Positions 44,119 to 59,413 of a stretch of DNA of 64,000 nucleotides are shown one piece after another (position 1 is the first letter of the stretch; each line of letters starts with the position of its first letter). The notes under the pieces were generated by a model. That model was not told where the DNA came from. It was given only the letters and a program-made list of their open reading frames with translations, and ran no database searches. The position numbers and the translations under genes were made by a program. Where the stretch lies: positions 26,285 through 90,284 of IMG/VR virus record IMGVR_UViG_2920580016_000002; one strand, written 5' to 3'. This stretch comes from a virus. Taxonomy: Duplodnaviria > Caudoviricetes.

Positions 44119-44956
44119 ACAGGGCAGCCAGGGTGACCTGCACCTTCTGCTCGTGGCCGCAGCCCGCGCAGGTGATGGGCACGCCCTCCTCGTCCGGGCC
44201 GACACGGCGGGTACGCAGCTCGTCCAGGATGGCGGCGCGGTCGGCCAGGCCCATCTCGCGCATGGCGGACTCGGCGGTTGGGTGACCAGCGACCGGGCGC
44301 ACGTTACCCGTCGGGCCAGTCAGGGAGATGACCGTGCGCGCCAGGAGCAGCGTGTCGGCCTCGGCCACCGTCAGGTCCTTGTCACGGGTGGCCGCGACCA
44401 CCTCGTTTTGGTCCTTGCCCCGGATCATGCGCACCTGCGCAGTGACGCCGCGCCTCAGGGACACCACGAACTCCGTGACTCCGGGCTCCGGGCTCTTAGT
44501 GATGGGGATCTCTTCCAGGCCCACGGTGACGCCGAGCTTCTGCTTGCAGCCCTGGCACGTCAGCTCATAGGTCAGCTTGTCGCCGTAGGTCGCCTTGCGG
44601 ATCCCGAGCAGCAGTATGTCGCGATCACCCACGACGAGCTGGTTGAGGAGGTCCTGCGTCGCGGGCCGGTCGCCGATGAAGGCCGTGCCTCGCTCCAGCA
44701 AGGTACTGACGAACGCCTCCGGCGCGCTGGACAGGGCGGCTCGGGAGATGGCCTCCTCATCCGCGCCGGTCAGCTCCCGCACACGAGCGGTCCGAACTAC
44801 TTGGCCGTCCAGGGTCAGGCCGCAGGCCAGCTCCACGACATCATCAGTGGGCGGCTCAGGCTGCGGCATGGGGTCTTCCAGCGCACGCCGTATCTCGGCT
44901 GCTGCCGTCGGATCTGTGACGGGATTGCGGTAGTGAATACCCGAGTTCTGGTCCAA
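44105..44956 (-). CDS. Tail assembly chaperone (T4 gp26-like, Cys pairs)
   Basis: VRELTG.DEE, DRD.LL..IR.ATYG, C..C twice; between tube and TMP. Confidence 0.85.
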   Translation of the reverse strand: MDQNSGIHYRNPVTDPTAAAEIRRALEDPMPQPEPPTDDVVELACGLTLDGQVVRTARVRELTGADEEAISRAALSSAPEAFVSTLLERGTAFIGDRPATQDLLNQLVVGDRDILLLGIRKATYGDKLTYELTCQGCKQKLGVTVGLEEIPITKSPEPGVTEFVVSLRRGVTAQVRMIRGKDQNEVVAATRDKDLTVAEADTLLLARTVISLTGPTGNVRPVAGHPTAESAMREMGLADRAAILDELRTRRVGPDEEGVPITCAGCGHEQKVQVTLAALFRWN

Positions 44957-45031
44957 GGCGGTAATTCTCCTTCGATATGCGACGGGTTCGTCTTACATAA
45001 CGTTAGGAGAATTACCGCCTCAGATATTAAC
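44956..45031 (-). promoter_or_regulatory. GTTAATA motif plus 16-bp perfect hairpin sequestering SD and first base of TTG
   Basis: AGGCGGTAATTCTCCT (45005-45020) / AGGAGAATTACCGCCT (44956-44971). Confidence 0.85.
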
Positions 45032-47198: not shown

Positions 47199-47834
47199 CT
47201 AATCCTCGTCGCCTTCGTAAAGAAAGTCGAAATGCTCTGTCTCTTTGTCGTCGCGCAGGGGCCGAAGTGTCCCGGCGACGTGATCGGGATAAGTGAGCCG
47301 TTCGATTTCCCAAGGCGTCATCTCAGAGAAGACGCGGACCAAGTAGTAAGTCTCGAATATCCGCTTGTTGTCGGAGTCCAGACGGGACGAGAACGTCGGC
47401 CCTGCCTGCACATCCATGGACACTTCCACCCCGATTTCCGGGATGAGCAGCGTGCCCGCCCGATGCGGGATCCTCGCCTCTTTGCCCAGCTCAACCGTCA
47501 GAAGCGTCTGATGCTCCTGCATCCTGGTGTAGACGCTGATCTGATAGTCGATGTCGAAAGGGATCGGAAACCCCGCGTAGTAACCCCAGCGCGCCCCAGC
47601 AGGAACCGGATCCTTTCCCTCGGGCGTGTACGGGATTCGCACACGGCCTCGGTGCTCGCGATCCGTTGCCTGATAGACACCTGTCCGAGTTAGTATCAGA
47701 ATCGGGAAAGTCATATCAGCCGCTTCGGGCTCGGGCTGCGAAAACCGCACAGGAACAGGCTCTCCGAGACCAGGCAAACTGATCCCAGAGAGCCGCGCCT
47801 TTATCGCGCGATCCTCACGCAGAACCCACGGCAT
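47199..47834 (-). CDS. Tail terminator/completion protein (Pvc16-like)
   Basis: Upstream of sheath; P.P.DIDYQI..Y.R pattern. Confidence 0.65.
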   Translation of the reverse strand: MPWVLREDRAIKARLSGISLPGLGEPVPVRFSQPEPEAADMTFPILILTRTGVYQATDREHRGRVRIPYTPEGKDPVPAGARWGYYAGFPIPFDIDYQISVYTRMQEHQTLLTVELGKEARIPHRAGTLLIPEIGVEVSMDVQAGPTFSSRLDSDNKRIFETYYLVRVFSEMTPWEIERLTYPDHVAGTLRPLRDDKETEHFDFLYEGDED

Positions 47835-47882
47835 AGCTGGTTACGCGCCCCAGCCAATCGCGCCGAAAACAATCACAATGAA

Positions 47883-54462: not shown

Positions 54463-56155
54463 TTAGAATTTGTTTTCCGGATTCTGGCGTTCAGGCGTCT
54501 TAGCGCCGTATGCCTGTGTCACGAGTTCGGTCATCAATGCTTCTTCGGCACCTGCCATGACTGCCGGTTGCCCGATAGCCGTGGGAGGCGTGTTGCCCGC
54601 AGTATCCGAATTCGTGGTCCCAGTGAGCGGGGCCGGGGCACCGTCACCCGTAGGTGACATCCCCGTCATTTGGAGAATAGCAGAAGCGATTTGCGCAGTA
54701 ATAAGGTCCAGGGCTCCCTGTTCCTTAGCGTCGCGCACCTGCTCTTCAAACAGCTCTTGCAACTTCTCGTCGGCGAATTCCTCGCCCATATCCTTGAGAG
54801 CGCCGCGCTTGGACTCCAAGCCAAGGCCCATACGGAGCTGGATTTCGTTGAGCTTGATGAGGTTGTCCACCGGCAGCGGCGGAGGCCACTCACAAGCCGT
54901 CTGGTAAACGAGCGGGTCGCGAGGGTCAATGACCAACGGCTGACCGTCCTGGATGATGCCGTCGGTGTCCGGGTCGTACTTCAGAGTTTCAGGCTCGAAG
55001 AGAAACAATGTCCTCAAGATCAGCTCGTTGATACGCCGAAGACCCTGCGTGTACTGCCGCTTTTTTGCGTTGTATCTCTGCATCATCGGGAACATTTGCA
55101 GAGCGAGGGCAACGCCGGAGGTATTGGAGATCGGCTGGGCCTGACCCAAGGAACTCTCTGGGACGCCCATCATCTCATGCATGGCGCGCTTTAGCGTCTC
55201 CATCCATTGGAGAGGCCATTGCAGATCTACGCCGTTTTCGAGGTTGAAGACCTTGGCGTCCGGCGGCAAGCCACCCCAGATCTTCCGCGCGCCCTTCTCC
55301 AGGTTGTTCACGCGAGCGCCAGTGATCACCGTGACAGGTGCCGAGTGGTAATTGATGATGTCACAGATGGCTACGGCAAGCTCGTTGTACTGCTGGTTCA
55401 GGGGGATGATGTCCTCGATGTCCGACAGCCCCCACGGCGATCCCGAGACGGAAACATTGGGGATGTGGACGATCGGGATGACACCCAGAGGGTTCTTCCG
55501 CCGGTTGATGAGCTGGTCATCCACCCACTCTTCTATAAGGTCCTCGGTGATGATCTCCTGGTAGGTGAAGACCTTCCTGGTCCCATCATTCGTGGTGGCC
55601 CAGAATTTGTAGCGAAGGCGGAAGCGCACGAGCCTCTCGCGGTCGTGCGGATGCCATTCTGGGAAGCAATGCGCCGCGTTGAGCGGAAGCACACGCACAC
55701 GACCCGCGTGCCAATTCCGGGCACGATCGACGTACGGCTTCTCGTACGCGATCTTCACGAAGCAGTCACCGCTTACCGAGCCGTTCTCGCCCATCTCGGC
55801 CAGCACGGTCGGCTTGTCGTTGTCCACCTCCCACACGCGGTTCAAAAGCGCGGGAATGATGTGTTCGTACTGCTTGGCAGACGTGAAGTGGACGCCACGG
55901 GAGAACGTGAAGTCGTTTACGAATCGGGTAAGCGCCCGAACGTAATTGAAGGTAAGCTGCGGCTCACCATATTCTCGACGGCTAGCCCAATGCCAGCCGA
56001 GATAGAAGGCCCAGTTCCGCGCATAAGTAGCGGTTGAGACGCGGACCGCTCACCTCCCATTCCTGGTCCGACAGTTCGACAAGACCAAGCGGGGAGATTG
56101 ACACGGTCAGCCCGCTAGCCTGCTGGCTCGGACTGTAAAAATTGAAGCCGCTCAA
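54463..56155 (-). pseudogene. Portal protein (SPP1-like), split by a 4-nt shift at 56024-56029; recoded gene or pseudogene
   Basis: Frame 1: TTG 56155 to TAG 55982 (57 aa); portal body is in the +1 frame from TAT 56025, with no start codon until TTG 55845. Confidence 0.85.
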
Positions 56156-56158
56156 CCT

Positions 56159-56238
56159 GGCATCACCTCCTCACGCAAATAGCCCGAATTGCTCACACAA
56201 TTCAGGCTATTTGAGTTGATGTGAAGAGTTGTAATGCC
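56159..56238 (-). promoter_or_regulatory. 80-nt hairpin sequestering portal SD GAGGAGGTGA
   Basis: GGCATTAC/GTGATGCC, CTCTTCAC/GTGAGGAG, AAATAGCCTGAATTG/CAATTCGGGCTATTT; G-U pairs work only on the coding strand. Confidence 0.8.
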
Positions 56239-56780
56239 TAACCGAGCGCGACCAGCGGAACGCGATGGTCGAGCTTCATTCCCGCGAAATCGAGGTAGGG
56301 CGGAAGCGCCACCTTAGTGCCAAGGACGGACGAATACACATCGCCCGACCCGTACCGTTCGTCCCAGACGTAAGGCTGTACGGCAGGGATCTGCACTGCC
56401 ATGGGGTCCGTGAACTCCACCATCAGCCAGGCCGTCCACTCACTGGAGCGTGCGGGGAGAGTACGGGGGAAGTCCATGTAGGTCCAGCCAGCTCCCTCCG
56501 TGTTGAGCGTGACCCCGTAGGAGACCCCGAGTGGAAGGAGCTGTGCATCCCCCGCCTCATTCTCCGGCGTGCCGTAGACGGCAGCTCGAACGCGGCCCTT
56601 GACATTGGTCTTGCGTACCAAGGCGATTGCCGCCCCACGAACGTCCTGACCAGCGGGCACCTGCATGCGAATGGCCCAGGTGCTAAGGAACTCGGGGTCC
56701 ATGACGGCGGCGTTGGTGGCCCAGGACGGCGCGCTCTGCACCGGATACCTGTAGCCGACTCCGACTGGAGTATCAGGCAA
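56238..56780 (-). CDS. Hypothetical protein (possible virion beta-sandwich)
   Basis: SD GAGG before TTG 56780. Confidence 0.7.
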   Translation of the reverse strand: MPDTPVGVGYRYPVQSAPSWATNAAVMDPEFLSTWAIRMQVPAGQDVRGAAIALVRKTNVKGRVRAAVYGTPENEAGDAQLLPLGVSYGVTLNTEGAGWTYMDFPRTLPARSSEWTAWLMVEFTDPMAVQIPAVQPYVWDERYGSGDVYSSVLGTKVALPPYLDFAGMKLDHRVPLVALG

Positions 56781-56809
56781 AGGGACCTCTCTTCTTGAGT
56801 AGGGGGTGA

Positions 56810-57019
56810 TCAGGCGGAGCGGGCGATGGCCGCGTTGCCCCACATCATCGTCTCTTCGAGATGAGTGATCGCCAGAGCCTTCTCCCGGCTTTCCGGGAGA
56901 AGCTCGTTCAGCGACCCGGCCAGATTCCGGCAGAGGCGGCGGATGGTCTCGTGGGCCACCACCGCCTTCTCATCCGGCTTGTGGTAGTTGAAGCGGTTGT
57001 CGAGATCGCCGGGCGTCAT
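56810..57019 (-). CDS. Acb2/Tad1-like hairpin-domain protein (candidate immune-signal sponge)
   Basis: RFNYHKP...L...L.ELLPESREKALAITHLEETMMWGNAAIAR. Confidence 0.8.
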   Translation of the reverse strand: MTPGDLDNRFNYHKPDEKAVVAHETIRRLCRNLAGSLNELLPESREKALAITHLEETMMWGNAAIARSA

Positions 57020-57021
57020 GA

Positions 57022-57432
57022 TCAGTCGTTGACCTGAGCCGGGTTGGTCCGCATGTAGTGGCCACCCGAGCGAGTGACCTGCTCGAACTCGCGCTCGCCG
57101 TGGTTGCCCAGGCCGCCATGCGCGAACTCGCCCAGGTAGGTCGGAGCCTCCACCCACGCGGCGCTGCCGACGTGCGCCCGCTGCTGGAGCGTCTTCTCCG
57201 GCGGCTGGACCCAGGTCGGGGTGACACGGTTCGGGCGGCCGGGAGCCGTCACGTACCCGTTGTTGACGCCGAGCTGGAAATCCGACGGGACATCGGTGTC
57301 GCTGGCGATCCCCTCCTCGAAACGAAGAGGACCACGCCGCGCCTGGTTGGCGGCCATCTTGCGCTCATAAACCGGCGTGATCCGCTCGGGGATGTGCGGG
57401 GCCGGAGAGAGCGGCGAAACGTTCTCTGCCAT
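57022..57432 (-). CDS. Hypothetical protein, likely virion-associated
   Basis: SD AAGGAG; RGPLRFEEG.A.DTDVP, RAHVGSAAWVEAP. Confidence 0.8.
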   Translation of the reverse strand: MAENVSPLSPAPHIPERITPVYERKMAANQARRGPLRFEEGIASDTDVPSDFQLGVNNGYVTAPGRPNRVTPTWVQPPEKTLQQRAHVGSAAWVEAPTYLGEFAHGGLGNHGEREFEQVTRSGGHYMRTNPAQVND

Positions 57433-57501: not shown

Positions 57502-59065
57502 AGAAGGGGTTGTTCGCCACTTCCATCACGGGCATCTGCGTCTCCTGCGTCAAAACACAGGCGAGCGCCAAACTATCGGCGTAGTCGTCGAAAGCGCCAG
57601 TTTCATTCGGAGCTTCCGCCATCATGTTCGGACCCTTGAATTCGACCTGGAGATCCTCCATCTGCTGCACGAAGCGCCGGTAAGTCCGCAGCCGCCGAGT
57701 CTTCGCATGCGCAGGCCAGCCGATCATCCGGCGTTCAAGGAGCTGGTTGAGATGCTTCCACCGCTTGCTCTGGTCACCGGCCATGGACCCCAGCTCCACG
57801 ATATTCGCGCGAGGCATCAGGACCTTCAGGCGCGAGGCCACCGCGTCACCTACGCCGCCGACGTCGATGCCGATGGCGAAGATGTTGTAGTTCGAGAGAA
57901 ATTCGGTGATGCGGTAGTACTGGCTCTCCCAGTCCATGCCTTCCAGATCGAGCCAGTTCAAGATCCGATGCTCATACATCCCGAATTCGTCGGGGCGATC
58001 CCAGTCCACCCAGACCACCGTCACAATGGTCGAGTCCTGCTTTCTGGCGGGGTCGATTCCGACGACCACGGGCGTCTGATGCCAGTACTTGACGGCCTCC
58101 ATGCTCTTGTCGCCCAGAGAGTCCAGGACTTCGCGGGTCGTGAACATTCCCTTTTCGAGAAGCCACATCAGCCTGAAGGACAGCTTGAACTCGTCGGAGT
58201 CCTCGCCGACCCGCAAGATCTCCTTCTTGACGTATTTCCCGTAGCGAGGGTTCGCCTTCGCCGCCGCTTTCCAGTCGGCCTCGAAGTGATTGCACCTTGC
58301 GCCTCGACGGCTAGCCAGTCTCTTGTTGAGCTGGATCGCCTTGTAGAACACGCCCTTCTCATAGCTCGGAGTGCCGGTGAAGACCATGGTCGCGTTGGTG
58401 CTCGCGCCCATGGGGGCGATTGACTTGTTGACCATCCGGTCATCCGCGCCTTGGCACTCGTCAATCAGGATCAGGTGGTAAGTCCGGCCTTCAATGATGG
58501 CTCGCGGGTGACAGGTCTGCCGACGCACCAGGGAACCCGAGCGAAGCGTTACTGTCCGGCCCTTTCCCTTGAGCGCGTCATTGATTTCGGGCTCGGCCAT
58601 GATTTCCACCGCGCGCTCGCTTGTGAGACGACTCACAATACGCGAGAAAAGGGTGTCCGCCTGGTCATCGACCGGCGCGAAAGCACCCACCCAGAGCCCC
58701 TCCTTGAAGTGCCCGAGAAGATCTGGGTAGATGCGCGCGAGGACCGGCAGCATAATCATCAGAGCGGCGACAACATTGGCGACAGTTTCAGATTTTCCGG
58801 ACTGCCTGGAAAATAGGGCAGTGATCGTCGCGCCATCCCCGATAATCACAGACTCGATCAGCCGCCGAGCGAAGGGACGCTGATAGTGATACAGCGGATG
58901 GCCACTCAGAGTATCGACCACGACCATCAGCTTGTCCACGAGCATGGCCACAAACTCGGCCGTCAGCTCGTCCAGCTCGACTTCCGTATCAAGACGAGCC
59001 TGCCGCTCGGTCTCGGTCTCGTCCGTCAGCTCTTCATCAAGATATTCGTCGTCTACCAGTTCCAC
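57497..59065 (-). CDS. terL: Terminase large subunit
   Basis: SRQSGKSE Walker A, LIDECQ, TGTP, GIDPAR..DST, DDYADS. Confidence 0.95.
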   Translation of the reverse strand: MELVDDEYLDEELTDETETERQARLDTEVELDELTAEFVAMLVDKLMVVVDTLSGHPLYHYQRPFARRLIESVIIGDGATITALFSRQSGKSETVANVVAALMIMLPVLARIYPDLLGHFKEGLWVGAFAPVDDQADTLFSRIVSRLTSERAVEIMAEPEINDALKGKGRTVTLRSGSLVRRQTCHPRAIIEGRTYHLILIDECQGADDRMVNKSIAPMGASTNATMVFTGTPSYEKGVFYKAIQLNKRLASRRGARCNHFEADWKAAAKANPRYGKYVKKEILRVGEDSDEFKLSFRLMWLLEKGMFTTREVLDSLGDKSMEAVKYWHQTPVVVGIDPARKQDSTIVTVVWVDWDRPDEFGMYEHRILNWLDLEGMDWESQYYRITEFLSNYNIFAIGIDVGGVGDAVASRLKVLMPRANIVELGSMAGDQSKRWKHLNQLLERRMIGWPAHAKTRRLRTYRRFVQQMEDLQVEFKGPNMMAEAPNETGAFDDYADSLALACVLTQETQMPVMEVANNPFY

Positions 59066-59070
59066 TATTC

Positions 59071-59100
59071 ATACCCTCGAAACCCCCTTTTCGAGCGTAC
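59071..59100 (-). promoter_or_regulatory. Hairpin overlapping terminase SD
   Basis: CTCGAAA/TTTCGAG extended by GTAC/GTAT. Confidence 0.5.
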
Positions 59101-59109
59101 AAATAGAAA

Positions 59110-59133
59110 AAGCCCGGATATGAATCCGGGCTT
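59110..59133 (-). terminator. Intrinsic terminator upstream of terL
   Basis: AAGCCCGGAT/ATCCGGGCTT then TTTCT. Confidence 0.8.
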
Positions 59134-59134
59134 C

Positions 59135-59413
59135 TTATGAGCCGTACGGTATCTGGCCCGGTGGTCGTCTCGGGATCCCAAGCTGGCGCAGCACGCGGGT
59201 CACCTCCGAGCGCTCCATGCCGAACATCTCCCCGAGCTTCGTTGTGGGGAGCTGGCGCACGTCATACAGATAACCAATGATCCGATTGCGCGCCTCCTGG
59301 CGGCTGATCGTGCCGCGCAGGTACTTGCAGGCCGCGCTACAGGAGACCGCCACTCGCTTGTCGGCGTAGGCGACGAAGGAGCCGCAGCCCTTGCAGTACA
59401 GGATCTCGCTCAC
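59135..59413 (-). CDS. Zn-finger plus HTH regulator
   Basis: CKGC...CSAAC; TTKLGEMFGMERSEVTRVL. Confidence 0.75.
   Translation of the reverse strand: MSEILYCKGCGSFVAYADKRVAVSCSAACKYLRGTISRQEARNRIIGYLYDVRQLPTTKLGEMFGMERSEVTRVLRQLGIPRRPPGQIPYGS

Follow-up and report, generated by a model that had tools for sequence, protein, structure and literature searches.

The locus lies in a prophage with a GC content of approximately 62%, carried by a host genome of 12.4 Mb and 70.3% GC. In the 64,000-nucleotide stretch of DNA that was analyzed (here called the window), the minus strand carries, in this order, the genes for the large terminase (TerL), a 136-amino-acid (aa) open reading frame (ORF), an Acb2/Tad1-like gene, a 201-aa ORF, a hairpin, the portal gene, a 251-aa ORF, and the gene for the major capsid protein. 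The features that frame the hairpin are as follows.

59065-57497, minus strand: gene for the large terminase, TerL
56810-57157, minus strand: Acb2/Tad1-like anti-defence gene (Pfam PF24729, 3e-20)
56238..56843, minus strand: upstream ORF of 201 aa, without a family match, ending in a TAG stop codon at 56240-56238
55982..56155, minus strand: N-terminal frame of the portal gene, 57 codons, ending at a TAG at 55984-55982
54463..56022, minus strand: portal body in the +1 frame, SPP1-type (Pfam PF05133, 2e-23; PHROG 64, 3e-38)

The 251-aa ORF between the portal and major capsid protein genes also had no family match. The nearest cultured phages are Streptomyces phages of 112 to 116 kb, for example GiJojo and BRock, with a portal identity of approximately 55%, and phages of this type likewise carry a run of small genes between the terminase and the portal.

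A folded leader upstream of the portal gene

RNA folding places a long hairpin directly upstream of the portal gene, with the following elements.

56159..56238, minus strand: three-helix hairpin (P1, P2, and P3), 80 nt
56242..56248, minus strand: 5' strand of P0, a 7-bp helix, within the last codons of the upstream ORF (folding of 56300-56100)
56176..56213, minus strand: inner stem P3, 17 bp with a 4-nt loop, AT-rich, -24.2 kcal/mol alone
56162..56172, minus strand: extended portal Shine-Dalgarno sequence (SD), with 11 predicted pairs to the 3' end of the host 16S rRNA
56153..56155, minus strand: TTG start codon of the portal gene, paired in P0, from which the N-terminus aligns with those of relatives

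In the fold of positions 56240-56159 of the minus strand, P1 (8 bp) pairs 56238-56231 with 56166-56159 and is separated by a 2-nt bulge from P2 (8 bp), which pairs 56228-56221 with 56174-56167; a 7/1 internal loop then leads to P3, which pairs 56213-56197 with 56192-56176. Pairing starts with the G of the TAG that ends the upstream ORF (56238). The first-pass annotation of this DNA had proposed three stacked helices that bury the portal SD and whose 5' arm begins on the last base of that stop codon, and folding bore this out. In the longer context P0 appears as well, its partner strand (56155-56149) consisting of the TTG start and four bases.

The minimum free energy of this fold is -44.2 kcal/mol, and the corresponding structure makes up 75% of the ensemble. 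Against 200 dinucleotide shuffles (mean, -17.5; standard deviation, 2.8 kcal/mol) the hairpin has a z score of -9.6, with none of the 200 as stable, and its GC-corrected excess stability ranks first among 15,980 82-nt windows taken from both strands of the 64 kb (residual, -29.2 kcal/mol; standard deviation, 4.7). The antisense strand folds to -32.9 kcal/mol, 11 kcal/mol less well than the sense strand, because three G·U pairs turn into A·C; this strand specificity through G·U pairs argues for a structure that works as RNA, on the mRNA strand. A DNA operator for a dimeric protein is unlikely, as the loop length differs by 3 nt among lineages and the G·U pairs make the DNA palindrome imperfect. 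A repeat or mobile element was rejected, since no half-site is repeated in the window and the sequence has no second copy in the 12.4-Mb host genome. A search of Rfam 15 gave no family at the gathering threshold, the sole match being to a spurious miRNA precursor (26.7 bits versus a threshold of 74).

The portal SD occupies the 3' strands of P2 and P1, where its pairing partner, a pyrimidine tract lying upstream, mimics the anti-SD of the 16S rRNA. The host 16S rRNA gene is actinobacterial looking and has the usual 3' end, ...GAUCACCUCCUUUCU. The duplex of the portal SD with the anti-SD amounts to -19.4 to -19.6 kcal/mol, the strongest among 26 prophage genes compared, of which the next reaches -15.8 kcal/mol and most lie at -4 to -11 kcal/mol. 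In the dominant fold, the SD has a probability of 0.007 of being unpaired and the start codon one of 0.09; the accessibility of the initiation region (0.04) is the second lowest of the 26 genes, for which values of 0.2 to 0.55 are typical. The outer helices are worth -20 kcal/mol (the full -44.2 minus the inner -24.2) and the SD duplex -19.4 kcal/mol, so that the two are in balance.

Distribution of the leader among related phages

Portal-based and pattern-based scans found the hairpin in only three related lineages: L005, an isolate-derived viral contig whose portal is 87% identical to that of the window; L006 and the equivalent L007, with 81% portal identity; and L119, which is one base off L006. 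All have the same architecture, with z scores of -6.4 to -8.2. Pattern scans of viral and metagenome sequences returned these lineages only, the other 70-odd palindrome matches being unrelated; 400 genomes of the host family gave chance matches only, and 50,697 phage records gave none.

In all three lineages the SD is placed in the 3' arm and faces a complementary 5' arm of its own, the pairings being CUCUUCAC/GUGAGGAG in the window, ACUUCCC/GGGAGGU in L005, and UCCCCCU/AGGGGGA in L006, in which the GTG start is paired too. L119 has one uncompensated change within the 5' arm. P3 hardly varies: one pair changes in a compensatory way from A-U to G-C, a U·G is kept in all, and the sequence of the stem is better conserved than clamping alone would call for. 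With three lineages to compare and outer helices in different registers, formal covariation by column is sparse, at 3 of 25 consensus pairs. Conservation of the stem in relatives had been named beforehand as a check on the proposed structure; the stem is kept in three lineages, and its arms co-vary with the SD.

Homology among the three lineages starts exactly at the hairpin, where identity is 0.85 and 0.75, whereas the upstream gene has an identity of 0.4 to 0.6 or none across these lineages. The upstream protein is 41% identical in L005 and unrelated in L006/L007, which have a 69-aa, weakly Acb2-like ORF at this place. As homology begins at the element and the upstream gene has diverged, the hairpin is part of the portal side of a mosaic junction. 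Between terminase and portal, the variable cassette contains an Acb2/Tad1-like sponge gene in all three hairpin-bearing lineages (window 56810-57157; L005:2883-3227; and, as a weak match at 5.8e-4, L007:3587-3796).

The leader structure is absent from some relatives, namely G050, L008, L014, and the Streptomyces phage GiJojo (z = +0.9). In a group of Streptomyces prophages with intact portals (the L009 group), an unrelated leader buries both the SD and the start codon (accessibility, 0.06 to 0.14; z = -4.5) and is preceded by a canonical terminator. The hairpin of the window is a real, conserved leader that hides a ribosome-binding site, a type of device that is already well known.

The interrupted portal reading frame

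The portal gene of the window is interrupted near its N-terminus, and codon alignment revealed three independent inserts of length 3n+1 within 15 codons of one another in portals of this group.

56023..56026, minus strand: 4-nt insert TTAT, after codon 43 (TAC, 56029-56027), placed by alignment with eight intact relatives
L005:4035-4060: insert TGAC of L005, seven codons downstream of the window's insert site
L023:1860-1885: insert TAGTGAA of the L023 group (L023, L035, and L048), eight codons upstream of the window's insert site

A slow codon (TTA, TGA, or TAG) opens each insert. Two of them offer matching codons for take-off and landing (UAC to UAU and GAA to GAA), and a hop between these codons restores the sequence of intact relatives exactly. 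The insert TTAT shifts the portal body to the +1 frame and creates the portal's TTA, which is the only one in frame: none occurs in the 8,361 codons of 23 other prophage genes. This absence covers 623 Leu codons in 23 minus-strand genes (window 29021-59065), despite the 62% GC content. Only one tRNA-Leu(UAA) is encoded in the host genome.

The three members of the L023 group are identical over the initial 108 nt of the portal gene and differ by 13 to 24% in their portal bodies, with mostly synonymous changes downstream of the insert. The body of L023 is 98.7% identical to that of the intact L026, all changes being synonymous, and its first 108 nt have 28 synonymous-site differences from L026, with the insert as the break point. 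A full HNH gene abuts the portal start in L035 only, and the other two members carry HNH remnants. The portal start of this group together with HNH looks like a mobile cassette (L035:3224-3865 with L035:3861-3975; L023:1700-1880; L048:3749-3975), resembling mobA with gene 60 in phage T4. The window contains no detectable HNH homologue; a 17-nt identity with the HNH/portal junction of L035 was considered as a remnant and rejected, as it consists mostly of the SD, the start, and a Ser codon. The window has a mini-ORF, AUG CCA GGU UGA, in the 3' arm of the hairpin (56150-56163), with a stop that overlaps the portal TTG (UUGA). Its counterpart in L005 and the L023 group is AUG CCA UGA overlapping an ATG start, and in L035 these are the final codons of the HNH gene.

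When 5.8 billion proteins were searched for short fragments of the portal N-terminus, one match emerged, a portal with an in-frame TAA and no frameshift. This low-GC metagenomic homologue (L184:1558-2199) has its TAA at about codon 78, after which the same frame resumes; it could be a pseudogene, a case of readthrough, or the product of an alternative code. On the evidence of the three inserts and the lone in-frame TTA, we favor recoding over decay as the explanation of the break in the portal gene.

The first-pass annotation had gone further and taken control of one gene both at initiation and at codons 43-44 as an argument for a frameshift that is regulatory and not a sign of decay. The hairpin does not carry that argument: the intact 562-aa portals of L006, L007, and L119 have the same hairpin; L023, L035, and L048, whose portals are interrupted, show little occlusion of the initiation region (accessibility, 0.30 to 0.52); and a different lock precedes the intact portals of the Streptomyces prophages. 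The lock predates the interruption of the portal gene and is independent of it, and the hairpin is uninformative on whether the break is deliberate.

The strength of the SD does follow the interruption. Among 55 distinct relatives, the five interrupted portals have the five strongest SDs, with duplexes of -18.5 to -22.7 kcal/mol (core, GGAGGUGAU), whereas the other 50 lie at -14.9 kcal/mol or weaker; a perfect SD of at least 9 nt is found in 5 of the 5 interrupted portals and in 0 of the 50 others. This suggests that initiation strength is tuned to pay for an inefficient hop.

Possible roles of the leader and comparison with known systems

Most likely the hairpin is an ordinary translation brake, predicted to lower synthesis of the portal. 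We tentatively read it as a cis-acting leader that hides the portal ribosome-binding site and so keeps a low-copy head protein low and dependent on upstream traffic, for which the RNA hairpins that sequester ribosome-binding sites in the leaders of T4 genes e, soc, 49, and I-TevI are a precedent (PMC3014915). The folded leader would bar a free 30S subunit, and ribosomes finishing the upstream ORF would unzip P0 and P1, which would expose the start codon and leave the five 3'-most bases of the SD available as a toehold. Starting there, the long duplex of SD and anti-SD could then displace P2. P3 would keep the two arms joined and may also play a separate, sequence-specific part.

It had been proposed that ribosomes terminating on the upstream gene melt the 5' arm, and in modeling this was true of part of the structure. 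A ribosome placed on the upstream TAG has P0 and P1 within its footprint and P2 outside it. P0 and P1 open, and the start codon is freed, its probability of being unpaired rising from 0.09 to 0.55-0.66, but P2 stays closed and that of the SD rises from 0.007 to only 0.17-0.26. With a ribosome likewise modeled on the stop in L005 and L006, SD accessibility is just 0.08 to 0.23. The stop codon that abuts the helix is weak support for coupling, as a compact mosaic junction would look alike.

Two more junctions of the prophage bury a downstream SD or start, and a further strong stem lies inside a coding region.

44957-45024, minus strand: second lock, a 20-bp perfect stem whose 3' arm holds the SD of the TTG-started 283-aa gene at 44956
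59063-59137, minus strand: TerL leader, a canonical terminator and then a hairpin of 10+7 bp in which the TerL SD and the bases just ahead of the GTG start are paired
47735-47816, minus strand: 18-bp perfect GC-rich stem inside the 5' coding region of a 211-aa gene starting at 47834

The 283-aa gene directly follows a putative tail tube gene, and the stem before it is kept almost base for base in the L005 phage (L182:1715-1850). A canonical terminator lies at the stop of the ORF upstream of TerL and is immediately followed by the 10+7-bp hairpin. The stem at 47735-47816 folds to -47.5 kcal/mol (82 nt) and its 121-nt context (47720-47840) to -66.2 kcal/mol. At the two other locks, approximately 9 nt and over 40 nt separate the upstream stop from the helix; termination is therefore not a general key, and this keeps alive the alternative that the hairpin is a site for RNase III.

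RNase III sites separate messages in phage T7 and open the lambda N leader. Here, cleavage of a coaxial duplex of approximately 33 bp would separate the portal and accessory messages, remove the 5' arm, and free the SD. The helices are long and near perfect (the 17-bp P3 and two of 8 bp) and exceed the duplex length of approximately 20 bp that such a site calls for; the junction at 44956 similarly has a perfect stem of 20 bp, which is kept in the L005 phage and carries the SD in the 3' arm, and a terminating ribosome cannot fully open either the hairpin or that stem. However, such a model does not require the energy balance between the SD duplex and the outer helices, and we regard cleavage as an unlikely alternative to a leader opened by ribosomes.

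An extension of the ribosome-opened leader would tie the lock to the interrupted frame as a gate with two inputs. The lock would time entry, and the TTA gap together with a bldA-type tRNA-Leu(UAA) would decide between hop and stop. The slow TTA is 126 nt, or about four ribosome footprints, from the first base of the start codon, and ribosomes queued behind it would reach the initiation region and hold the lock open; the long SD, present in the interrupted portals only, would link the two inputs. This extension, too, appears unlikely to us.

Somewhat less probable is an intrinsic terminator or insulator, in which P3 and the following UAUUUG end transcription of the accessory cassette and shield the head genes, burial of the SD being incidental. 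The hairpin does lie exactly where the variable cassette gives way to the conserved portal block, AAAUAGCC...GGCUAUUU-type hairpins are frequent elsewhere (77 metagenome matches, most of them unrelated), and the L009-group relatives have a canonical terminator ahead of their portal leader. NusG, moreover, can aid suboptimal terminators in actinobacteria, but actinobacterial RNA polymerase requires a U-tract (PMC3993855), and only three U follow the stem. The hairpin does not fit the pattern of a GC-rich stem followed by at least 5 U in 8, and the terminator scan misses it yet finds the one before TerL. Termination would also starve the capsid genes downstream and leaves P1, P2, and their co-variation with the SD unexplained.

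More doubtful still is a switch of the T4 gene e type, in which read-through transcripts from the accessory cassette are locked and a promoter in the 5' arm yields armless, translated transcripts, as in the T4 precedent (PMC3014915). Two boxes in this region, TTACAA and TAGCCT, are invariant and exactly 19 nt apart in three lineages with a variable spacer between them; TAGCCT fits the actinobacterial TANNNT form of the -10 element, and the Acb2/Tad1-like anti-defence gene in the upstream cassette might call for a different timing. The -35 match is poor, though, and the spacer long; the two boxes are absent from the output of a sigma-70 scan, the only other two-box match in the window points into a convergent gene, and the two other locks have no such boxes. 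Pairing and P3 also account for the conservation of the boxes.

The least probable reading is that of a relic, a hairpin inherited without present function by a prophage defective through its frameshifted portal: the portal is interrupted in both the window and L005 and the window's version is known from one genome, but every pair is intact and the interruption looks selected, with three independent 3n+1 inserts that each open with TTA, TGA, or TAG, matching take-off and landing codons in two of them, and mostly synonymous changes downstream of the insert in the L023 group.

As a ribosome-hiding leader, the hairpin provides a clean, conserved case of sequestration of a ribosome-binding site in a poorly studied group of temperate actinophages, and at least two further junctions of this prophage carry similar locks. 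In this clade, portal synthesis would be held down at initiation in several independent ways, and initiation control is separate from recoding. The value of the hairpin lies mainly in the context that it gives, as part of a multiply controlled portal gene.

The closest likeness is to the leaders of T4 e, soc, 49, and I-TevI and of Aeh1 mobE, in which upstream RNA pairs with the SD and/or the start, translation of long transcripts is poor, and the structures are kept among related phages, as is this hairpin (PMC3014915). The key to the T4 leaders is a late promoter inside the 5' arm, whereas the hairpin before the portal has no convincing promoter and differs further in its three to four stacked helices, its sequence-conserved inner stem, and its exceptionally long SD.

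In the RNA phage MS2, translation is coupled through long-range pairing, and translation of the coat gene opens the replicase and lysis starts. There, as here, a downstream start is closed by pairing with sequence that ribosomes traverse, which in the portal leader comprises P0 and the base of P1; in contrast to MS2, just these basal helices, and not P2, are within reach of upstream ribosomes. Intrinsic terminators resemble the hairpin in being stable stem-loops that immediately follow a stop codon, with a run of A on one side and a run of U on the other, but have a U-tract of 7 to 9 nt in place of three U, and the AT-rich stem and the outer helices, which have no role in a terminator, set the hairpin apart (PMC3993855).

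For the interruption of the portal frame, the closest published case is the UUA-linked translational bypass in the terminase gene of the Streptomyces phage phiHau3 (PMC10732093), and T4 gene 60 with mobA offers a parallel of bypass with a mobile gene (cited in PMC5009743). The likeness consists in a 3n+1 noncoding insert that starts with a slow codon in an essential late gene of an actinophage. These systems act on elongation, unlike the hairpin, which precedes the take-off codon by more than 130 nt and is present also in portal genes that have no insert.
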